Source: Bacillota bacterium
GTDB lineage: Bacteria > Bacillota > DSM-12270 > Thermacetogeniales > Thermacetogeniaceae
Reading direction: 5' to 3'
Length of the DNA stretch: 54,819 bases
NCBI GenBank assembly: GCA_036742135.1
Contig: DAINRC010000001.1
Span: 41,311 to 96,129 of the forward strand
A program made the translations under genes and the position numbers. Below the pieces are notes generated by a model. It saw nothing but the letters and a program-made list of their open reading frames with translations. It did not search any database and had not been told where the DNA came from. Position 1 is the first letter of the stretch. Each line of letters starts with the position of its first letter. Of the stretch, positions 38,451 through 53,498 are shown one piece after another.

Positions 38451-39497
38451 GTGATTGTGATTTTGCCTGCAAAAATAAGAGCGGTGGAATCGCTGTGCGG
38501 CGTTTCGTTCGTTCTGGCGTTATTGTTGGGCGTCCTCGTTTTAAAAAACTCGGAGGCGCAGGCGCTGCCAGTGGTTTCTGGCGCTGTGGATGACTCGGTT
38601 TGCCGGAGCGTATACGAAGTCAGCTCTGTCCCGGCCATCGTCCGGCAGGAGATTCTACTTTCCGAGGCGCACCTGAAAGTACCCAACGACCCCGGGGGCC
38701 TGCGTAATGCTGCCCTAGCGGCGAAAAAAATTAATGGCACGATTGTCCAGCCTGGTGCCGTCTTCTCGTTCAACAGGGTTGTCGGGGAGAGAACTTAGAA
38801 AAACGGTTTTGTCCCCGGACCTGTGGTCGTCCGCGGCAGGCATGGGTTCCGGAGGGGGCTGGATGTAGGAGGGGGCGTCTGCCGGACGAGCACTGCAGTT
38901 CACCATGCGGTGCTGAAGGCCGGCTTAAAGGTCGTCGAAAGGCACTCCCACTCCATTCCGGTGGAGTATGCAAAGCCGGGATTCGACGCCGCCGTGAACT
39001 GGGGTGTGTGGGACTACAGGTTCCTCAACAATACGCGGAACCCGATCAAAATCGTGGTAGGCATCCAGGGCGACGTCATAGAGGCGCAGCTTTACAGCAT
39101 AGTCCCGGTTAACGCAAACGTCCGGGTATTTCTAGACGGGAGCGAAGTCCTCTTTTCGGGCAGGAAGCCTTTCGTGCTGAACGGGATCACGTATGTTCCC
39201 CCGGAGTTCTTTGAGGGCAACTTTGGCCTGAAAGTCACCTGGGACAGGCTGGCGAAAACAGTTTCCATAGAGGGCTGGGGCAGGCTCCTTAAGCTCTCGA
39301 ACGGTGTTTTGTTCACCAATGAAACTGCAATGATCCCCCTGAGGGCTGTAGCCGAGTGGTTTGGAGCGGCGCTCTCATGGGAGCCGGGAAGAGTTCAAAT
39401 CAAGAGCGGGATGCTCACCGGCTGCGCCTCCAGGTCAGAGGCCGCAGTGAAGCCGAAGTTCCTCCAGCCGTCTCCGACATCGACACCGTGCACGTGA
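38451..39497 (+). pseudogene. VanW-domain / copper-amine-oxidase-N-domain protein interrupted by an in-frame TAG (38796-38798)
   Basis: ORFs 38451-38798 and 38823-39497 are in the same frame. Reading through gives ...FSFNRVVGERT*KNGFVPGPVVV...GGGVCRTSTAVHHAVLKAGLKVVERHSHS, which is a continuous VanW core. The C-terminus has stalk-type repeats (LNGITYVPPEFF; MIPLRAVAEWFGAALSW). Confidence 0.7.
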
Positions 39498-39631
39498 GAC
39501 TCGGCGGTAAAGAAGAAAAAGTCCAGCTCATCGGCGTCAACTGCCCCCTTATCTCTATTTCTGAAGCTGTAAAGCTTCCTACTTCTCAGGCTGATGGAAC
39601 CCGTTCATTGGACTTGTCGTTCCAGCACTAG
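39452..39631 (+). pseudogene. thermonuclease (SNase)-like N-terminal fragment
   Basis: VSDIDTVHVRLGGKEEKVQLIGVNCP resembles VDGDT..V.L.G.EEKVRLIGVDTPE. It is out of frame with the preceding ORF and the similarity stops after CP. Confidence 0.45.
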
Positions 39632-39823
39632 ACGAGTGGCTTCTTGAGGAAACCTGAGCCTGTACTTTCTCAGCATTCCCCAAAGAAGTGGTTTTTCAGG
39701 AAGCTGTTTGAAGTCGTTGAGGTGGGCCTTGGAACCACGCTGCGCTCCCTCCAAACTTAGAGACTCTGACGCTCCCTAGATTAGCTAAGGCTAATGCTTT
39801 GAAGAAAGGGGAAAGGAGAAGGG

Positions 39824-40072
39824 GTGATTTTTAGGGTACTCTGCATCTTAATTCTAGTAGCTGTGGTTGTTGTTGCTGTTCTTGTGGTTAGAAGTAGAAG
39901 CGAAATTAATCTTCTCAAAAAGCGGTACAGGCAAATCTCATTCTTACCACCCAAGGAAGCCGAGAACTCGCTACAACGGCAAATAGAAAGACTTAAAAGC
40001 AAGTATCCTAACCGTTCTGAGAAATGGTATCTTGAGAAAGTTATTTATGATTTAGAAAGGGACAGAAGGTAG
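39824..40072 (+). CDS. small single-pass membrane protein, unknown function
   Basis: GTG lies 8 nt after aaggag. N-terminal TM VLCILILVAVVVVAVLVV and a charged helical tail. The local sequence is AT-richer than the surrounding remnant. Confidence 0.5.
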   Translation: MIFRVLCILILVAVVVVAVLVVRSRSEINLLKKRYRQISFLPPKEAENSLQRQIERLKSKYPNRSEKWYLEKVIYDLERDRR

Positions 40073-40270
40073 TTTAAGGCGAAGTCTCAAAGATTGCAGA
40101 AATTGAAGGTGACAGCCTCTCAAGTCCCTTGGTCCGTCAGGTCGCTGGTCAAATGGCGGTTCGGTGCTGTGCGGGCTAGGGACAAAGCCAAAGGAGAGGG
40201 TGGAGCAGACAGCGCTTTCCCGTACTAGCTGGGTTATGGTCAATGATGCCGGATTAGAGCCGGAGTATGT

Positions 40271-40483
40271 TTGGCAGGTGCCAGGGCCTGCCCGCCCGAG
40301 GACTGCGGCGGCCCCTGGGGGTACCAGAGGATGCTGGAGATCCTTTCTGAACTGGGACACGAAGAGTATGTGGAGACAGTCGAGTGGCTGGGCGGAGAGT
40401 TCGACCCCCAACTGGAGGTTGCGGCAGGTGAATCTCTAGGCGGCCTGTGGCTTGCTGGAGCGCGCTGCCAGGTGGTTCGCTGA
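40271..40483 (+). pseudogene. C-terminal fragment of a PRiA4_ORF3-family (IS1096 TnpR-passenger-like) protein
   Basis: RACPPEDCGGPWGYQRMLEIL...HEEYVETVEWLGGEFDP matches the family signature CPPEDCGG.WGY. The N-terminal two thirds of the domain are absent. Confidence 0.55.
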
Positions 40484-40667
40484 GGACTCCTGGGTGTTGG
40501 TGTGGGAGAAGGCTAGAGGCGTTCCCTTGAAAAGCAGGTGCGCTGGGCCGCCGGCGTTGGAGGCCAAGGGCTTCTTCGACCAATTGTTCGGGGATGATTA
40601 AGAGAGCTGAGGGGTGCGAGGGCTCTCCTTTGCGCCCTTTCTGTTTTTTCCTGGAGGTGGCTTTGCC

Positions 40668-40857
40668 GTGCGGTTCTACACCGTGAAAGGCATCCTTGAG
40701 CTTCCCGCCTTCCTCACCGTAGAGGAGGCTGCAAGAATTCTGCGCCTGAAGCGCTCGACCGCCTATGAGTATGTTAGGCGGAGGGGAGATTCTTTCAGTC
40801 CGCCTTAGGTGTTTCATCGGGATGCTAAAGGCAAAGCTCCTCAAGATGGCCGGATAG
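40668..40857 (+). pseudogene. excisionase-type helix-turn-helix gene with a frameshift
   Basis: LTVEEAARILRLKRSTAYEYVRR in one frame continues as GEILSVRL...KAKLLKMAG-stop in another. The shift is near 40780-40790. Confidence 0.55.
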
Positions 40858-40874
40858 AGGAAAACGGGGTAGGG

Positions 40875-41228
40875 ATGGAGAAGATCTTAACTGCCCCCGC
40901 TCGGCCTGAGAACAGGCAGGAGATGCGGGGACACATCCGCAGGCGCCGAAAGTCCTGGGCCGTGGTCGTGGAGTGGGACCCTGAGACCGGCAGTCGCCAG
41001 GAGAAGGGGATCACGGTGAGGAGGACCAAAAAAGAGGCCGAGAAGGTGCTTGCGGAGACGCTCGCCAAGCTGGGGCGCGGCGAGCTGGCCTCCTCCTCCA
41101 AGATGACGTTGGGGCACGTCCTTCCAGACATGCAGGCGAAGTCAGTGAAGGCAGTGCAGCGGTGTTTGCAGATGTTTGCAAGGAGGGTAGAAAAAGCCTG
41201 GCAAATCAAGGGTTTGCGGGCAGAGTGA
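40875..41228 (+). pseudogene. tyrosine integrase, N-terminal arm-binding fragment only
   Basis: GHIRRRRKSWAVVVEWDPETGSRQEKGITVRRTKKEAEKVLAETLAKLGRGELASSSKMTLG is the typical phage-integrase N-terminus. Similarity ends near 41130 and no catalytic domain follows. Confidence 0.6.
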
Positions 41229-41234
41229 GGCTAG

Positions 41235-42086
41235 ATGATTAACTTCTCTGTTGTTGAAAAGACTGAATTGGCTCCAGGAATTAAAAAACTGGTGGTTAAA
41301 GCTCCTCCTCTGGCAGCGAAAGCGAAGCCAGGACAGTTTGTAGTTCTCCGTCTCCATGCCCGGGGTGAGCGAATCCCCCTGACAATTGCCGATTTTGACC
41401 GGGACAAAGGAACGATTACCCTGATCTTTCAGGAAGTTGGCCTCACCACCTTCCAACTTGGCTCTTTAGAGCCAGGTGATACCATCAGGGATCTTGCTGG
41501 TCCTTTGGGAAAACCGAGCAGACTGGACTATTTCGGAAAGGTCTTGTGTGTGGGAGGAGGAGTAGGCTGTGCTCCTCTTTATCCCATAGCCCGTGCTCTC
41601 AGGAAGCAAAAGAACGATGTCGCTGCAGTTATAGGGGTCCGCTCTGGCGAGTTCCTAATCTTAAGAAAGGAAATGGAAGAGCTGTGCCGTCCCCTGATTA
41701 TCACTACTGATGATGGGAGTGAAGGGTTGCGGGGAACAGTTCTGGCGGGAGTCAAGGAATACTTCAGGGAGCACGGCAAGCCTGATTACTGTGTCTGTAT
41801 TGGGCCTCCACAGATGATGGAGGCTGTTTGCAATTTTACCCACAGCTATCAAGTGAAGACTGTAGTCAGCCTCAACCCCCTTATGGTAGACGGGACCGGA
41901 ATGTGTGGAGCCTGCCGGGTTGTGGTTGGCGGAGAAGTTAAGTTTGCCTGCATTGATGGACCCGAATTTGAGGGTCATCTAGTTGACTGGGAACTTCTCA
42001 AGAAGAGGCTTCAGTTCTACAAAAGAGAAGAAAAAGTGGCTCTTGGCGCCTATTTGCGAAAGCCCAGGAACGCTGGTGAAAGTTAG
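41235..42086 (+). CDS. nfnA: NfnA / sulfide dehydrogenase beta-type FAD and [2Fe-2S] subunit (ferredoxin-NADP reductase-like)
   Basis: FNR-like fold (GQFVVLRL, RIPLTIADFD, GGGVGCAPL). C-terminal cluster GTGMCGACRV...CIDGPEF. Confidence 0.85.
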   Translation: MINFSVVEKTELAPGIKKLVVKAPPLAAKAKPGQFVVLRLHARGERIPLTIADFDRDKGTITLIFQEVGLTTFQLGSLEPGDTIRDLAGPLGKPSRLDYFGKVLCVGGGVGCAPLYPIARALRKQKNDVAAVIGVRSGEFLILRKEMEELCRPLIITTDDGSEGLRGTVLAGVKEYFREHGKPDYCVCIGPPQMMEAVCNFTHSYQVKTVVSLNPLMVDGTGMCGACRVVVGGEVKFACIDGPEFEGHLVDWELLKKRLQFYKREEKVALGAYLRKPRNAGES

Positions 42087-43481
42087 ATGAAGTGGAAAAA
42101 TGATTACGGAAGAGTCCCCATGGCGATCCTCAACCCCACCATGCGCATCAGGACATTTGATGAGGTTACTCTTGGATATACTAGCGATCAAGCCATGCGG
42201 GAAGCGGCGCGGTGTCGGGGATGCTCTCAAGCTCCCTGCCGTCGTGGCTGTCCTATTGGAGTGGACATCCCCGGCTTTATTTCTCTTTTGAGAGAAGGAA
42301 AGTTCCAGGAGGCTGCCCAAAGCCTTAGGGAGAGAAATACCCTACCTGGTATTTGTGGGAGGGTGTGTCCCCAAGAGCGAAATTGTGAAAAGCACTGCGT
42401 TCTAGCAAAAAAAGGAGCACCTATTGCCATTGGGAAGTTGGAACGGTTTGTTGCTGATTGGGAAAGAGAGCACGAATTAATTGTTCCCCCTATTCATAAG
42501 GCCACAGGAAGAAGAGTGGCAGTTGTCGGCTCTGGTCCTGCAGGTCTTACTGTTGCTGCTGCTCTGGCGCGCCAGGGCCATAAGGTGATGGTTTTTGAGG
42601 CTCTTCATGCACCTGGAGGGGTCCTCTCTTATGGAATTCCTCAATTTCGGCTTCCTAAAGAAGTGGTGGCCGCAGAGATCGATTATGTTTGTGCCCTTGG
42701 GGTGGAAATAGAGCTAAATGCTCCTATTGGGAAACTTTATTCGCTTCGCGAGTTGAGAAGGGAATATGACGCCGTTTTCCTGGGAACAGGTGCGGGTCTG
42801 CCCCGCCTCCTTGGGATTCCTGGGGAGCACCTGAACGGAGTTTACACTGCCAATGAGTTTCTGACACGGGTCAACCTGATGAGGGCTTACCTTTTTCCCG
42901 AATATTCCACACCTGTAAAGGTAGGGAAACAGGTGGTAGTCATCGGGGGAGGAAATGTCGCTGTTGATGCCGCCAGAGTGGCTGTGAGATTGGGCGCTGA
43001 AGAGGTTGTTGTCCTCTACCGGCGCACCCTACTTGAGATGCCGGTGCGTGCTGAGGAGTACAAATTCGCCTGCAGGGAAGGAGTGTTATTTAGATTTTTA
43101 GTGGCACCTTTGGAGTTTCGTGGTGATGCCGCAGGATGGGTTAAAGAGGTGTTTTGTATCCGTTGTGAGTTGGGTGAAGTAGATGAAACTGGGAGAAGGA
43201 GACCAGTTCCTGTCCCTGGTTCCGAGTTTACCATTCCTGTTGACACTGTCATTGTTGCCATCGGCCAGGAGCAGAATACCCTTGCCTTGGCTGAAGTGCC
43301 GGAGCTTTTAACACCATCGGGTCGTTTTGTTGGTGCTGACCCGGAGACAGGAGCGACACCTGTTCCGGGAGTCTATGCTGGTGGTGATCTGGTGACAGGT
43401 GCGGCGACAGTCATCGAAGCAATATCTGCCGGGAAGAGGGCAGCGAAGGCAATTGACCGCTACCTCGCCGAATTAGACTGA
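42087..43481 (+). CDS. nfnB: NfnB / glutamate synthase small-chain-like NADPH oxidoreductase subunit
   Basis: Two Cys clusters (CRGCSQAPCRRGCP; CGRVCPQERNCEKHC). Dinucleotide folds VAVVGSGPAGL and VVVIGGGNVAVD. Confidence 0.88.
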   Translation: MKWKNDYGRVPMAILNPTMRIRTFDEVTLGYTSDQAMREAARCRGCSQAPCRRGCPIGVDIPGFISLLREGKFQEAAQSLRERNTLPGICGRVCPQERNCEKHCVLAKKGAPIAIGKLERFVADWEREHELIVPPIHKATGRRVAVVGSGPAGLTVAAALARQGHKVMVFEALHAPGGVLSYGIPQFRLPKEVVAAEIDYVCALGVEIELNAPIGKLYSLRELRREYDAVFLGTGAGLPRLLGIPGEHLNGVYTANEFLTRVNLMRAYLFPEYSTPVKVGKQVVVIGGGNVAVDAARVAVRLGAEEVVVLYRRTLLEMPVRAEEYKFACREGVLFRFLVAPLEFRGDAAGWVKEVFCIRCELGEVDETGRRRPVPVPGSEFTIPVDTVIVAIGQEQNTLALAEVPELLTPSGRFVGADPETGATPVPGVYAGGDLVTGAATVIEAISAGKRAAKAIDRYLAELD

Positions 43482-43792
43482 GGGGAAGCACCGACAAAAT
43501 TTCGTTTTCCCTGGCAGGAATTTGGCACATTTTTCACGAATATTTTTAGAGGCAGGCACTTGTTGCTTTCTTTTCTTTGTAAAGATTCTTTTGAAAGACA
43601 GTAATTTCCTAAGTGAACTATTTAATATTTTTGTGATGGCACTTAGGATAACCGTTCTGCAGGTGGTCCGGTTACAAAAAGGTGCTTGCTGGTCAATGTC
43701 ATCAGGAATTGGAGGTGAGAACGCAAGAACCGGTTGCTTTCTAGGCATATTTTTGAATTAGTTACCAAATTAATTTTTTGAGGAGGGATAAG

Positions 43793-44659
43793 ATGGCTGC
43801 CCAACTTTTGTTGGGGAAACCTCTCGCCGAAAAGATTATCGGAGAGGTTTCCAAAGAAGTTGAAGAGTTGAAGGCTAAAGGTGTCGAACCTTTTCTTGTT
43901 GCCGTCCAGGTAGGGGAAAACGAGGCCTCACGTGTGTATACGAACGCCCAGAAGAAGAATGCCGAGAAGTGCGGGATTAAGTATGAGCTTCAGGAACTTC
44001 CTGCGGATACGACACAGGAGCAACTGCTCAAGCATATTGCTGATTTGAACGCGGATCCCAAGGTAACCGGGATTATTCTTCAAATGCCTGTGCCTCCCCA
44101 CATTGATGCTAAAGTTTGTCAGTGGAGCATAGCCTATGAAAAAGATGTCGAGGGTGTTACTCCCACCAATATGGGCTTGGTGGCTTTTGGAAAACCGCGC
44201 TTAGCTCCATGCACTGCAGTCGGTGCCTACGAATTGATCAAATCTACAGGTGTTGATATTTACGGCAAAGAAGTTGTGGTCGTGGGTCACAGTGACATTG
44301 TCGGGAAACCAGCAGCTTTGATGCTGTTGAACAGCTTCGGAACAACGACAATCTGCCACATTGCTACCGGCCAGCGGGGACACACAGAGATGCACGTTCG
44401 GAGGGCCGAAATTTTGGTTGTTGCCGTTGGTGTTCCCCACCTGATCAAGGGTGAATGGATTAAAGAGGGTGCAATTGTTGTCGACATTGGGATCAACACC
44501 ACCAAAGACGGCAAGATCGTTGGAGACGTTGAATTTGATGTTGCCAAAGAAAGAGCTTCCTGGATCACTCCTGTCCCAGGTGGTGCCGGAACCGCAACCA
44601 CGGCAATTCTGATGCGTAACACTGTGGAAGCTGCCAAGTGGCAGTTGGAGAAGAAGTAA
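43793..44659 (+). CDS. FolD paralog 1 (divergent methylene-THF dehydrogenase/cyclohydrolase homolog)
   Basis: ATG 43793 follows gaggaggg. Full-length FolD fold (GIILQMPVP, GHSDIVGKP, ITPVPGGAG), but YTNAQ replaces YxxxK and KDVEG replaces KDVDG. Confidence 0.85.
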   Translation: MAAQLLLGKPLAEKIIGEVSKEVEELKAKGVEPFLVAVQVGENEASRVYTNAQKKNAEKCGIKYELQELPADTTQEQLLKHIADLNADPKVTGIILQMPVPPHIDAKVCQWSIAYEKDVEGVTPTNMGLVAFGKPRLAPCTAVGAYELIKSTGVDIYGKEVVVVGHSDIVGKPAALMLLNSFGTTTICHIATGQRGHTEMHVRRAEILVVAVGVPHLIKGEWIKEGAIVVDIGINTTKDGKIVGDVEFDVAKERASWITPVPGGAGTATTAILMRNTVEAAKWQLEKK

Positions 44660-44756: not shown

Positions 44757-45614
44757 ATGGCTGCAATTCGGATTGACGGAAAAGCAATGGCTGCAGAAAT
44801 CAGAGACCAGCTGGCCCGCGAGGTTGAGGAACTGAAAAATAAAGGGATCACTCCAACAATGGCCTTAATCCTTGTAGGAGATGCTGAGGATTCGGCACTC
44901 TACGTGCGCAGCAAAGCAAAGGCATGTGAAGGGGTAGGAGGGTTTGCCGAGGTTCACCATTTAGGCGAAAATACCACACTTGAGCAGTTATTGGCATTAA
45001 TTGATAAACTTAATAAGGATGACAGTGTTCATGGGATCCTGGTGCAGCTGCCTCTACCTCACCACCTCCATCCTTATGAGAAAAAAGTGATGGATGCTAT
45101 TCTCCCGGAAAAAGATATCGATGCTTTTCATCCGGTGAATATCGGCAACCTGGTAATTGGTGATGAGTGCTACTGGGGAGTTACTGCTCATGCTTGTGTT
45201 AAGATCCTCGAGAAGCTTGGGGTGGAACTTAAAGGGAAGCATGCAGTTGTTGTCGGTTGGTCGATCGAAATCGGCAAACCGGTGACGATGATGCTTTTCG
45301 AAAAAGGATGTGCTGTAACTCTTGTCCACCCGGAATCCGACTTCGTGCCCTTTACCAAACAAGCCGACATCATCATCACTGAGGTTGGAAAGCCGCGGGC
45401 GATTACCGGCGAGATGATCAAGCCGGGAGCGATTGTTATTGATACAGGCTCCAACTGGGTTGAGGGCAAGAGTGTTGGTGATGTCGACTATGATAGTGCC
45501 GCAGAAGTTGCTGGGTACATCACACCCGTCCCCGGAGGAGTTGGCCCGATGAGGATTATTATGTTAATCTACAATCTTGTCCAGGCAGCGAAGAAAAAAG
45601 CTGGGATCAGCTAG
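44757..45614 (+). CDS. folD: FolD paralog 2 (catalytic Tyr/Lys/Asp motifs canonical)
   Basis: SALYVRSKAKACE, GILVQLPLP, KDIDAFHP, ITPVPGGVGPM. Occupies the position before xseA, as in B. subtilis. Confidence 0.88.
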   Translation: MAAIRIDGKAMAAEIRDQLAREVEELKNKGITPTMALILVGDAEDSALYVRSKAKACEGVGGFAEVHHLGENTTLEQLLALIDKLNKDDSVHGILVQLPLPHHLHPYEKKVMDAILPEKDIDAFHPVNIGNLVIGDECYWGVTAHACVKILEKLGVELKGKHAVVVGWSIEIGKPVTMMLFEKGCAVTLVHPESDFVPFTKQADIIITEVGKPRAITGEMIKPGAIVIDTGSNWVEGKSVGDVDYDSAAEVAGYITPVPGGVGPMRIIMLIYNLVQAAKKKAGIS

Positions 45615-47091: not shown

Positions 47092-47975
47092 CTTGGGAAG
47101 AGGCCCTTGGGGCAAAAGCGAAGATGATCAACGAAGGTCTCCACCACTATATGCCTAGTGAGTCTGATTATCCCCCTTTGATCCATGAGGCCATGCACTA
47201 CAGCCTGTTTGCCGGAGGAAAGCGCTTGCGTGGTGCCCTCACCCTTGCTACCGCTGAAGCCCTGGGACTCCAGCAAGAACGCGTTCTTGCTGCTGCCTGT
47301 GCCCTCGAGATGATCCATACTTATTCCTTAATCCACGATGACCTGCCAGCAATGGATGATGATGATTTTCGTCGGGGAAAGCCGACGTGCCACCGGGTTT
47401 ACGGAGAAGCGATTGCTATTCTTGCCGGTGATGCTTTGCTTACCCTCGCCTTTAGTGTTCTCTGCAGACTTCGGGAATCCGGCTTTTCTCCTGGAGTAAT
47501 TCTCCAAGTAATTGAAGAGATAGCCACTGCCGCCGGGACGCGGGGCCTTATTGGAGGGCAAGTCGTTGACCTCGAGTCTGAGGGGTGCCAAGTGTCTCCT
47601 GGGACGATCGAATACATTCACCTCCATAAGACAGCTGCTCTTTTCCGCGCTGCAGTTCGCTCTGGGGCTCTGTTGGCAGGAGCAGAGCAGCAAAAACTGG
47701 AGCTTCTTACCGATTACGCCGTTGCCCTGGGAATGGCATTCCAGATTACTGACGATATCCTTGACTTAATTGGGGACGAGAAAGTCCTCGGTAAGCCGGT
47801 AAAAAGCGATCTTGCCAAAAAGAAAGCTACTTATCCGAGTGTTTTTGGCTTGGAGCGGGCTCGGGAAATAGCAGCTTGTTATGTTGATAAGGCCCTCCAA
47901 GCATTGGAAACATTAGGACCTGAATTCGAATTTTTGCGAGGAGCAGCATGCTACTTGCTGCAGCGGAGATCCTAA
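47088..47975 (+). CDS. ispA: farnesyl diphosphate synthase
   Basis: ATGA overlap with xseB. Aspartate-rich motifs HDDLPAMDDDDFRRGKPT and FQITDDILD. Confidence 0.9.
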   Translation: MTWEEALGAKAKMINEGLHHYMPSESDYPPLIHEAMHYSLFAGGKRLRGALTLATAEALGLQQERVLAAACALEMIHTYSLIHDDLPAMDDDDFRRGKPTCHRVYGEAIAILAGDALLTLAFSVLCRLRESGFSPGVILQVIEEIATAAGTRGLIGGQVVDLESEGCQVSPGTIEYIHLHKTAALFRAAVRSGALLAGAEQQKLELLTDYAVALGMAFQITDDILDLIGDEKVLGKPVKSDLAKKKATYPSVFGLERAREIAACYVDKALQALETLGPEFEFLRGAACYLLQRRS

Positions 47976-47977
47976 TT

Positions 47978-48007
47978 TTGTTCAGATTTCTGAATTTGTG
48001 TTATAAT
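47978..48007 (+). promoter_or_regulatory. extended -10 promoter (TTGTTC, 18-nt spacer, TGtTATAAT) with an embedded 6-2-6 palindrome
   Basis: -10 at 48002-48007 with TG at 47999-48000. The palindrome ttcaga tt tctgaa at 47981-47994 fills the spacer. Confidence 0.45.
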
Positions 48008-48010
48008 AGT

Positions 48011-48060
48011 CTTGAGCATCTTGAGCATCATAATTAAGGTAATTATGAACATCTTGAGCA
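48011..48060 (+). repeat. three copies of cttgagca(t): two in tandem, one 25 nt downstream, flanking an AT hairpin
   Basis: Copies at 48011-48019, 48020-48028 and 48053-48060. Hairpin cataatta/taattatg at 48029-48047. The third copy forms the 5-prime strand of the long-range closing helix. Confidence 0.85.
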
Positions 48061-48690
48061 GGTGGTGCAGTATTCTAGTCGGGACAGCTGGCTTTGAAGG
48101 CGGGCCTAAAAATCCGTCGCGGGCAACAATGAAGTTCCTGGTACTGGCTTCTGACGCCCAGTTGGGGGTTTGTACTGGGAGTTAAGGAGGAAGGGCAATC
48201 TACAAAGGCATGTAGATGGCGACCCTTCTTCCGCGGAGGCCCAGAGAGGTGGGATGAATACCACACTCTGGGTTGACCCTGGAGGAAAAAGAACCGGAAT
48301 CCAGGGTAGCCCGGCCTTGAGTGGTAATGGTGGATACCAGCATGGTCTTCCTCTCCCGAGGGGCCCTAGGGAAGAGGAAGGAATGGTTTGAAACCATTAC
48401 TGCAAAAGAGGCTAGAAGCTGGCTGAGCCCGTCGAGGAAAGCTCCTAGACTGTCTACCTGAGGGTAGCGCCTGTCAGGGATTAAAGTGTGGTCTAAGTGG
48501 TAGTCTAGCCCTGTTTTCGGCGACGAAACAGAGCGGGCTTAAAGGGGAACCACCAAAACGGCGACGTTTTGGCGCCCGTTTGGGAAAACCTGCTAGACCT
48601 AAGCCACAATGTTTACCTGACAGGTGACCACCTGCTCACTCGGGAAAATGGGGGTTGGTAGCGAAGTTTCGCTCCAACCTATTTATTTAA
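48050..48690 (+). ncRNA. ole: OLE (ornate, large, extremophilic) RNA
   Basis: No RBS-linked ORF in about 800 nt. Nested long-range helices 48056-66/48627-37, 48471-79/48616-24 and 48536-45/48598-605. At least six local hairpins, two of them with GCGA tetraloops. Size is about 630 nt. The diagnostic context is ispA-[RNA]-oapA-dxs-tlyA-nadK. Confidence 0.8.
48653..48688 (+). terminator. terminator-like hairpin plus U-tract at the 3-prime end of the structured RNA
   Basis: ggttgg 48653-58 pairs with ccaacc 48674-79, with inner stem agcgaa/ttcgct, followed by tatttattt. Confidence 0.55.
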
Positions 48691-48779
48691 GCAATGCAAT
48701 AAATTTAAGCAATTGCTAAATTTTATCACCTGGCTACGCGAATTTTTTCTGGGAATTCTAAAGGGGTTTTGAAAATCCA

Positions 48780-49367
48780 ATGTCGAAACAAAATCGGGTG
48801 TGGCGGCGAGGCTTGGGAAATGCTTTCCTGACCTTTGTTCTTACTCTTGTCTTTAGTTACCTTGCGGAAGCAATTTTGCGCAGGATCACAATTCTTTTTT
48901 TAGCACTCTTATTGCTGCTTTTGGTCATTTTTATTGGTGTGATCTTTGATATGATCGGATTTGCGGCTGCAGCTGCTGATATCGAGCCTCTGAATGCGCG
49001 GGCCTCTAATAAGGTTTGGGGAGCGAGGCAGGCAGTAAGGTTGATCAAAAACGCTGACCAGGTCGCAGTTTTCTGCAGTGATGTTATGGGAGATATTGCC
49101 AGCACCATCGCCGGCGCCCTGGGGGCCGTGATCATCTTCCGCCTCTTGGCCTCTAAGCCGGGTCTTAGTGAAGGTTTGCTGACGACCTTGATGGCAAGTT
49201 TGATCGCTTCGGTAAGTGTTGGGGGAAAGGCTCTTGGTAAAGGTTTAGCCCTGCGGGAGGCTACAGAAATTATTTTTCGGTTGGGCCAGTTGCTCGCCTG
49301 GGTAGAAAAAATCACTGGTTATCAGTTTTTCTCTGCTGCAAAAGGGGAAAAGGTGAAGAAAAAATGA
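48780..49367 (+). CDS. oapA: OLE-associated membrane protein OapA-like (four TM segments)
   Basis: A 195-aa polytopic protein immediately downstream of the structured RNA. Its stop overlaps the dxs start (ATGA). No other family was recognised. Confidence 0.72.
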
Positions 49368-52913: not shown

Positions 52914-53498
52914 GTGTCCGGAGTTCTAGCGACTCCAGTGATCCTTTCGCACCTGCTCGTAGCCCAGGTTCTCCAGGAAGGAGATCTCGCTGTTGATGGG
53001 ACCGCTGGAAATGGACATGATACTTTGTTTCTAGCTAGCAAAGTAGGACCTCACGGAAAAGTCTATGCCTTCGACATCCAAGAGGCAGCGATTCTCAAGA
53101 CACGAGAGCGTCTTCGTCAAGAAGGGCTGGAAGATCGGGTGGTTTTGCTTCAAAAGGGCCATGAGAGACTTAGGGAGTATGTTTCGGAGAAGATTAAGGT
53201 AGCTATGTTTAACCTTGGTTATCTGCCAGGAGGTGACCACAAGATCACCACTAAGCCATCAACAACCCTCGCTGCTCTTAAGCAAGTCCTGGAGATCCTT
53301 GAGGAGGGTGGCTTGGTGTCTGTTGTGGTCTACAGGGGGCATGAAGGAGGAACTGAAGAAGGAAAGGAACTTTGTTCTTTTGTGGAAACCCTTGACCCCA
53401 AAAAATGGGATGTGGTCAAGATTGAGTATCCAAACCGTTCTGCAAAGTCTCCGTTTCTCATCGGCATTCAAAAGAAAGTTGCAGGGGGTTTTCAATGA
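52914..53498 (+). CDS. class I SAM-dependent methyltransferase, YtqB/MnmM-like
   Basis: VDGTAGNGHDTLFLASKVGPHGKVYAFDIQ and MFNLGYLPGGDH resemble the YtqB family. Confidence 0.7.
   Translation: MSGVLATPVILSHLLVAQVLQEGDLAVDGTAGNGHDTLFLASKVGPHGKVYAFDIQEAAILKTRERLRQEGLEDRVVLLQKGHERLREYVSEKIKVAMFNLGYLPGGDHKITTKPSTTLAALKQVLEILEEGGLVSVVVYRGHEGGTEEGKELCSFVETLDPKKWDVVKIEYPNRSAKSPFLIGIQKKVAGGFQ

Follow-up and report, generated by a model that had tools for sequence, protein, structure and literature searches.

OLE, the ornate, large, extremophilic RNA, is among the largest and best conserved of bacterial non-coding RNAs (ncRNAs), and its biochemical activity is still unresolved for the family as a whole. 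The RNA has been studied in Halalkalibacterium halodurans, and cryo-electron microscopy (cryo-EM) structures have come from Clostridium acetobutylicum and C. botulinum (PMC12286853, PMC12265935). The recent cryo-EM work suggests that OLE may span the membrane, and P3 is the stem proposed to do so (PMC12265935). Described here is an OLE locus in a 54,819-nucleotide (nt) stretch of DNA from a Bacillota bacterium (contig DAINRC010000001.1); this whole stretch of 54.8 kb is termed the window, and all positions are counted within it. The segment 48046–48647 (+) is almost certainly a full-length OLE gene of an uncultured anaerobic member of the Bacillota related to Syntrophaceticus, with the gene at 48780–49367 encoding the membrane partner OapA.

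The Rfam covariance model for OLE (RF01071) matches 48046–48647 of the forward strand over its full length (model positions 1–616 of 616), with a score of 468.6 bits against a threshold of 50 and an E-value of 1.9e-134 (cmscan). It is the sole Rfam match in the window. A first-pass annotation, made from the nucleotide sequence before any database search, had called an OLE RNA here and had proposed this same comparison; the end-to-end match bears the call out. When the model is mapped onto the window, 140 of its 154 pairs are standard base pairs. The minimum free energy (MFE) of the matched segment is −275 kcal/mol, compared with −215.7 ± 7.5 kcal/mol for shuffled sequences (z = −7.9). The size first given, about 630 nt, was too large: the conserved body, from one P1 strand to the other (48055–48638), is 584 nt. 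Helix numbers here and below were assigned in this analysis from the text of the papers. P7, P8 and P9 are present and the P13 site for OapB is kept, so the RNA is of the full-length type and not variant 1 or 2 as these have been defined (PMC11332333). Nothing was found that speaks against membership in the OLE family. The locus can be regarded as already known, since it is a full-length member of a well-described family that the stock Rfam model detects, and it is ordinary except for small local peculiarities, namely a junction variant.

Comparison with other loci provides independent evidence for the fold. A total of 120 OLE loci were taken from reference genomes by means of the conserved block GTGGTGCAGTATNCTAGTC, and 72 of them were aligned with the window. 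Across these 72 loci, 15 of the 19 Rfam helices are 83–100% paired, as against 11–79% (mostly 20–60%) when the 3′ partner strand is slid, and many of the pairs change on both sides. Pairing scores are poor for P7, inner P8 and distal P9 (P7/P8 are 56% and 39% paired). These are length-variable hairpins that MAFFT aligns poorly, and their covariation is therefore uninformative.

In the structure line of the Rfam model no pairs are drawn for the first 50 nt at the 5′ side or for the 3′ end. P1, P2 and P3, which the published OLE model places in those terminal parts (PMC12265935), are not annotated by Rfam. A formal covariation test of P1 and P3 was made on an alignment of 29 sequences (A3). In this alignment 82.8% of the cells of the two helices are paired compared with 68.6% in shuffles, and the covariation score is 0.521 compared with 0.259 when shuffled (reached in 0 of 500) and 0.13–0.20 when slid. 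P1 by itself has 81–84% of its cells paired and six pairs that change on both sides. Beyond its GUGGU:ACCAC core, P1 is extended by a mean of 3.25 base pairs (bp) when a strand is matched with its own partner, and by 1.37 bp when matched with the partners of other loci. P3 displays up to six pair types per position, e.g. GC, UA, AU, CG, GU and UG at 48091:48419. For the two helices formed by the P3/P3.1 strands, pairing is 95.6% and 78.4%, with two-sided changes in 14 of 15 pairs.

P2 is nearly constant. Its sole variable pair in the 72 loci, 48074:48449, is UA in 58, CG in 12, UG in 2 and CA in none, with a Fisher value of 6e-12 that is uncorrected for phylogeny; all other P2 positions are invariant. 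The proximal part of P2 is recovered by the MFE fold. RNAduplex offered another pairing, 48073–76 with 48435–38. Covariation of 48074 with 48449 speaks for UCUAG:CUAGA instead, and the RNAduplex pairing, which also clashes with a covarying hairpin, 48434–36/48442–44, was dropped. The CUAG palindrome in the P2 5′ strand is presumed to be the OapA site in or near P2. All published helices that were testable covary.

These data also bear on the helices proposed at first pass. The closing helix, 48056–48066 with 48627–48637, is indeed a perfect 11-bp complement and corresponds to P1. An inverted repeat of 11 bp in 750 nt is not beyond chance alone, as the longest repeats in 30 shuffles of the region are 8–18 bp and reach at least 12 bp in 10 of the 30; this helix is counted as real because of covariation and not because of its length. 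The second helix was correctly seen as a pairing but was placed one base off, since 48470–48478 pairs with 48616–48624; Rfam models this pairing as a helix of 11 bp, 48468–48478/48616–48626. Compensatory variation in homologous loci, the further check that had been suggested, supports this helix and P1, as well as P2 and P3, which had not been listed. The local hairpins at 48186–48232, 48240–48272, 48277–48306 and 48454–48467, and the two hairpins with GCGA tetraloops at 48511–31 and 48553–72, fold as described, and all of them are helices of the model. The third long-range helix, 48536–45/48598–605, fails: it shows no compensatory change in the 72 loci, and its strands are already engaged in the covarying helices 48532–38/48574–81 and 48487–91/48604–08.

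The protein gene downstream gives a second line of evidence. It lies immediately after ole on the same strand, about 140 nt away, and its product had been taken for OapA, an assignment that holds. By published criteria, OapA is recognized from a weak similarity to the CNNM transmembrane domain and from a DxxxD motif that true CNNM domains lack (PMC11332333). The DxxxD motif of the window protein is D101-V-M-G-D105. An alignment of 62 homologues encoded next to OLE has DVxGD without exception (62 of 62), and D57, N91-A92 and G149-K-A-x-G-K154 are also invariant or nearly so in it. The Pfam CNNM model (PF01595) matches residues 45–179 of the 195 with 28.5 bits at a cut-off of 28.4, and such a borderline match is the behaviour published for OapA (PMC11332333). 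An OapA homologue is the first open reading frame (ORF) of at least 120 amino acids (aa) after OLE in 63 of 66 other loci.

Pfam detects no further domains in the protein, CBS and CorC included; NCBIfam has no model that matches it, and a PDB sequence search returned nothing at E-values up to 1. Four transmembrane helices are expected of OapA; Kyte–Doolittle hydropathy shows clear hydrophobic stretches at residues of about 11–34, 36–68 and 102–125, and the expected fourth (about 131–155) is weaker and below the threshold used. Like OapA elsewhere, the protein is small and hydrophobic, is encoded next to ole and has a DxxxD motif and a borderline CNNM match; the CNNM-domain Mg2+ transporters MpfA/CorB are distant relatives of OapA. 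It is identified as OapA and not MpfA because it has no CBS or CorC domains. The occurrence of mpfA is anticorrelated with that of OLE.

The closest relative of the locus is that of an uncultured Clostridia bacterium (L064), with OLE 79.5%, Dxs 74.5% and OapA 70% identical. Next is Syntrophaceticus schinkii (L112), with OLE 75.8% and Dxs 69% identical. Both belong to the Bacillota/Clostridia. Hosts of OLE are typically anaerobic or extremophilic Bacillota; the host here is assigned to the Bacillota and a spoIIIA operon is present in the window.

Compared with the OLE RNAs that have been studied, the window RNA is of the same length class and has the same conserved blocks and helices P1–P15, including a full-length P7–P9 region. 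It shares the GNRA loop and bulge of P13, and a GNRA loop together with a single-nucleotide bulge in P13 are the determinants of OapB binding (PMC7936274). The motifs of the dimer contacts are also shared. The A-rich P4 loop is dimer contact 1 in the cryo-EM structures (PMC12265935, PMC12286853). The P5.1 and P6.1 loops are mutually complementary, as needed for intermolecular kissing contacts (PMC12265935), and the GGCC of the P9 loop is a symmetric kissing-loop contact (PMC12286853). Across the 72 loci the P5/P5.1 and P6/P6.1 helices are 96%, 83% and 98% paired; in A3 their loop nucleotides are invariant, and the columns of all the dimer-contact motifs (P4, P5.1/P6.1 and P9 loops) are invariant or nearly so. 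The motifs are in place, and dimerization is predicted by homology. Other points of likeness are the position of oapA directly downstream, the presence of isoprenoid, DNA-repair and translation genes nearby, an ole-proximal promoter (predicted here) and an anaerobic Bacillota host.

The differences are few. J4a/5 is 2 nt shorter, uniquely so among 96 loci, with loss of the AUCGAU sequence; J8/9 reads GCCCGGCC in place of an otherwise invariant GCCUGCC; P3 and P3.1 together have 15 bp where 12 bp is the published typical value; transcription is predicted to begin some 40 nt upstream of P1 and not at the P1 base; and mnmM is inserted between nadK and argR. ROOL, GOLLD and the raiA motif resemble OLE as large structured ncRNAs of unresolved biochemistry, some of which are homo-oligomeric. 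None shows a sequence or structure match, the OLE model alone matching the window, and ROOL and GOLLD are phage-associated, cage-forming and without a membrane-protein partner.

The departures at the P4a/J4a-5/J8-9 junction deserve separate consideration. In J4a/5 the consensus GGGCACAUCGAUGAAG is replaced by GGGCAACAAUGAAG, the result of a 2-nt deletion and substitutions. The AUCGAU palindrome is kept in 89 of 96 loci and is lost in the window; six other loci are also without it. AUCGAU, which lies next to P4a and the kink-turn (k-turn), is presumed to be an OapA half-site. One OapA-binding palindrome has been placed ‘in or near P4a’, and the OapC k-turn lies in J4a/5 (PMC12265935, PMC9723947). 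The k-turn strand (consensus CAUCGAUGAAG), marked in the family by a C-G pair beside a 3-nt bulge and by a GA dinucleotide, retains the essential C (48127), a 3-nt bulge (AAU) and GAAG in the window, together with an A at the equivalent of U84, an A and not a G as the first bulge base, and the loss of 2 nt upstream.

On the junction's opposite side, J8/9 (48307–48316) reads GUAGCCCGGCC compared with GUAGCCUGCC, which is invariant in the 71 other loci, and position 48120 is C where 68 of 71 loci have A. The J8/9 change and the A-to-C change at 48120 together create CGGGC:GCCCG (48120–24/48309–13), five G-C pairs that the MFE fold forms; this would represent a strengthened P4a. Two independent Joint Genome Institute (JGI) metagenome contigs carry the same junction sequence, which excludes sequencing error. 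When metagenomes were scanned for the deletion (pattern GGGCAACAATGAAGTTCCTKG), one match (L123) came up; it lacks both an OLE context and any similarity to the window and was discarded as due to chance. OapA of the window has S108, A111 and S146 where 92–95% of OapA proteins have G, S and T. Co-evolution of these residues with the lost palindrome was considered and rejected, since the closest relative (L064) has the same residues and keeps AUCGAU.

Some caveats attach to this assignment. Of 206 columns conserved to at least 93% in the other loci, 10 are altered in the window; the median per locus is three, counted over the 216 columns conserved with the window included. The J4a/5 deletion and substitutions are of this kind, and the A at the U84 equivalent matches the H. 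halodurans U84A mutant, which binds OapC more weakly in vitro (PMC9723947). The promoter, the terminator and all functional steps are in addition inferred. Among about 55 ORFs of the window scanned with Pfam, oapB/ybzG, oapC/ybxF and rpsU were not seen; these genes normally sit elsewhere in the genome.

Might the RNA then be a decaying or partly non-functional relic, in which the J4a/5 deletion and the J8/9 change disable docking of OapA or OapC? A unique deletion where the other 95 loci are fixed in length, the loss of AUCGAU, the U84-equivalent base and the excess of deviations would all be expected of such a relic. Yet no helix has been lost and the RNA scores very highly against the model, oapA is undamaged and keeps all its invariant residues, the promoter and the 3′ hairpin are conserved, and the same sequence is found in two independent metagenome assemblies. 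The U84A RNA remains functional in vivo in H. halodurans (PMC9723947) and the palindrome is also lacking from six other loci, while the paired changes in J8/9 and at 48120, which strengthen CGGGC:GCCCG, resemble compensation and not decay. A relic is thus highly improbable, and an intact OLE gene remains the preferred reading. Within that reading there is a further proposal, at present doubtful: that the lineage carries a naturally remodelled P4a/J4a-5/J8-9 junction, made up of the 2-nt deletion with loss of AUCGAU, the A at the U84 equivalent and the J8/9 change. If the ribonucleoprotein (RNP) is fully functional, neither the palindrome nor the exact length of J4a/5 would be needed for OapA or OapC docking.

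Another question is whether the RNA is free-standing, and here the flanking signals are pertinent. An ole-proximal promoter has been shown experimentally in H. halodurans only (PMC3413148). A candidate promoter in the window (Table 1) is conserved in L064 and S. schinkii, and the intergenic DNA around it is not (alignment A1); transcription would start near 48014. Of 121 OLE loci, 90 have a perfect TATAAT in the 100 nt upstream of their GUGGU core, compared with about 19 expected by chance, and 69 have TGnTATAAT. This family-wide enrichment fits the promoter found in H. halodurans (PMC3413148). A simple promoter and terminator scan of 47800–49000 found nothing, including no separate oapA promoter; it missed the ole promoter because the −35 sequence matches at only three of six positions, and the terminal hairpin because of a bulged U.

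The distance between the −10 box and the GUGGU core is 54 nt, against a mode of 6–22 nt (48 nt in L064 and 34 nt in L112), and from this distance a leader of about 40 nt is predicted. The sequence TCTTGAGCA is found three times in this region, at 48010–18 where it straddles the predicted start, at 48019–27 in the leader and at 48052–60 extending into the P1 5′ strand, and an AU hairpin (48029–36/48040–47) sits between copies. The upstream copies may be rivals of the P1 5′ strand for pairing with UGCUCA, the outer half of its 3′ partner, or may simply have arisen by slippage. A comparable partial duplication, ATGAG TATGAGCAGG, is seen in S. schinkii upstream of P1.

At the other end, the terminal hairpin with a U-tract reported at first pass is present. 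Its stem (48653–48679) is followed by UAUUUAUUUA, and S. schinkii has conserved the stem along with the U-rich tail (alignment A2). Like hairpins are found just after P1 in about a dozen other loci, though not in all. The hairpin is likely to be the main 3′ end and a leaky intrinsic terminator, which would pass some transcription into oapA. Between the hairpin and oapA there are an 11-nt direct repeat, ATTTAAGCAAT (48685–95 and 48703–13), and a 10-nt palindrome, AGCAATTGCT (48708–17); neither is conserved in L064 or L112. This segment, 48685–48717, may be a protein-binding site ahead of oapA. A different arrangement is seen in Bacillaceae OLE loci (L007, L022, L048, L063, L066, L070, L075, L081, L091, L109, L114 and L115), where a strong hairpin, GCCGTTATCAC...GTGTTAGCGGC followed by a T-run, is found about 80–125 nt after P1. 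That hairpin is within the first 30 or so codons of oapA, and is thus terminator-like yet in coding sequence.

This arrangement of the window locus, with ole and oapA on one strand about 140 nt apart, no separate oapA promoter detected and a terminator-like hairpin between them, is also the layout of an attenuator. It could therefore be argued that the RNA is a long structured 5′ leader, riboswitch- or attenuator-like, that regulates oapA in cis. The H. halodurans RNA speaks against this, as it is discrete, abundant and very stable, has a half-life of about 3 h and acts in trans as an RNP (PMC3413148, PMC12265935). In many loci ole and oapA are not separated by a hairpin, and what is conserved in the RNA are sites of protein and dimer contact and not an expression platform. 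A purely cis-acting leader is, if anything, even less credible than a relic, and a free-standing RNA is preferred. Some overlap between the two readings remains, as oapA is probably fed by transcripts that run through the hairpin.

The gap in which the RNA gene lies had been described as devoid of a credible coding sequence, and this is so: 804 nt separate the end of ispA at 47975 (farnesyl diphosphate synthase, 372 bits with NCBIfam) from the next credible coding sequence, which starts at 48780. The statement that it holds only three short ORFs is too low, as more than three have at least 30 aa; that none has a Shine–Dalgarno sequence is correct. Several ORFs of 30–73 aa are found inside the OLE region. 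All those of at least 46 aa gain stops or frameshifts in L064 and L112, and in the two shortest (30 and 34 aa) interruption is inconsistent among the closest relatives. Translation of the region had been named as evidence that would count against an RNA; judged by these comparisons, the region is without conserved translation. The idea that it is protein-coding, or a GC-rich spacer that is self-complementary by chance, can draw on these ORFs and on an 11-bp repeat that alone is within chance, and it is already refuted by the lack of any Shine–Dalgarno sequence, by the broken ORFs in relatives whose DNA is 76–80% identical, by some 20 helices kept through compensatory base changes in 72 loci and by the covariance-model E-value.

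Table 1. Positions of the OLE RNA, its predicted signals and parts, and associated genes in the window
Feature	Position	Strand	Description
OLE RNA, full-length type	48046–48647	+	Rfam RF01071
Predicted ole promoter	47978–48007	+	−35-like TTGTTC 47978–83, 18-nt spacer, extended −10 TGTTATAAT 47999–48007
Predicted 5′ leader	48014–48054	+	About 40 nt upstream of P1; AU hairpin 48029–36/48040–47
P1 5′ strand	48055–48066	+	Pairs with 48627–48638; not in Rfam structure
P2 5′ strand	48067–48078	+	GCAG (48067–70):CUGU (48450–53); UCUAG (48074–78):CUAGA (48445–49)
P3/P3.1 5′ strand	48080–48095	+	48080–83:48428–31; 48085–95:48415–25; RNAduplex and covariation
P4 hairpin	48099–48118	+	Invariant A-rich loop CCUAAAAA (48105–12); 97% paired
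P4a 5′ strand (likely) and J4a/5 k-turn strand	48119–48134	+	CGGGC 48120–24:GCCCG 48309–13; from MFE fold and inference
P5/P5.1	48135–55/48161–81	+	Loop GCCCA; GCCC 48156–59
P6/P6.1	48186–95/48223–32, 48200–04/48211–15	+	Loop with GGC 48207–09
P7	48240–72	+	Present, short
P8	48277–306	+	Present, short
P9 arm, P9 to P9.3	48314–48412	+	Terminal loop GGGCCC (48361–66) with conserved GGCC palindrome
3′ domain	48434–48626	+	Small hairpins 48434–44, 48454–67; helices 88–100% paired, many changes on both sides
3′ domain, nested helices	48468–78/48616–26, 48487–91/48604–08, 48504–09/48592–97	+	Last is P12.2
P13	48511–31	+	GCGA loop, bulged U48516; predicted OapB site
P14	48532–38/48574–81	+	
P14.1	48552–73	+	Second GCGA loop
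3′ hairpin	48653–48689	+	GGUUGG-U-AGCGA AGUU UCGCU CCAACC then UAUUUAUUUA; −16.8 kcal/mol
oapA	48780–49367	+	195-aa membrane protein; Pfam CNNM, DVxGD motif, position after ole
mnmM	52914–53498		tRNA methyltransferase MnmM; NCBIfam 237 bits, between nadK and argR

The genes around ole are arranged in the order spoIIIAA-AH, carboxylase subunits, two asp23/yqhY, nusB, two folD, xseA, xseB, ispA and ole, followed by oapA, dxs, tlyA, nadK, mnmM, argR and recN. Published OLE gene associations match this neighbourhood (PMC12265935), in agreement with the first-pass annotation, whose list omits mnmM. In two other loci (L015 and L008) argR directly follows nadK.

Other features of the window were also noted. 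There are two complete tandem folD paralogues, encoding methylenetetrahydrofolate dehydrogenase/cyclohydrolase (43778–44659 and 44757–45614), and an NfnAB/GltD-like oxidoreductase pair (41235–43481) precedes them. Together the folD pair and the NfnAB/GltD-like pair fit the Wood–Ljungdahl-type metabolism expected for a relative of syntrophic acetate oxidizers. A VanW-like gene is split into ORFs 38451–38798 and 38823–39497, which may reflect a frameshift. The following 1.7 kb or so (39500–41230) has small ORFs only, with no Pfam match other than a weak integrase arm-binding domain at 40809–41228. Positions 1–23600 contain aroB, a CBS-GGDEF protein, a type IV pilus cluster (pilB/T/C, pilins, pilMNO and prepilin peptidase), two GAF-HD-GYP proteins, a CHASE2 adenylate/guanylate cyclase and an SLH-domain protein.

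A mechanism for the locus can be outlined. Judging from the sequence, the extended −10 promoter would drive synthesis of the RNA from a start near 48014, most transcripts would end at the U-tailed hairpin (48653–48689), and read-through would feed oapA. The subsequent steps, those of fold, dimer, membrane, OapB/OapC and stress, are drawn by homology to the H. halodurans experiments and the Clostridium cryo-EM structures. By this homology the RNA would form two domains joined by the long P3 stem, and would dimerize via the A-rich P4 loop, the P5.1/P6.1 loops and the P9 GGCC loop. OapA, a distant relative of the CNNM/MpfA divalent-cation transporters, would anchor the RNA at the membrane, with OapB bound at P13 and OapC at the J4a/5 k-turn. 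Family hallmarks are an abundant, stable and discrete RNA at the membrane and stress phenotypes upon its deletion, and by the same homology the RNP might help the cell against alcohol, cold, an excess of Mg2+ and poor sources of carbon; its most likely mode of action would be to modulate ion handling that depends on OapA (functional statements after PMC3413148, PMC9723947, PMC7936274, PMC11332333, PMC12286853 and PMC12265935).

With respect to significance, no new type of element is gained from the locus, a full-length OLE of the standard kind that has its oapA and lies in the standard gene cluster. It places an OLE RNP, by homology, in an uncultured relative of syntrophic acetate oxidizers, and the comparison supports by independent covariation the helices P1, P2 and P3 that are unannotated in Rfam. 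Of some interest to specialists is only the natural variant at P4a/J4a-5/J8-9, which sits at the junction of proposed OapA, OapC and bS21 binding and of three alternative folds. If the remodelled junction belongs to a fully functional RNP, the RNA would be a natural mutant with which to decide among the competing k-turn 1a, k-turn 1b and OapA-site models.

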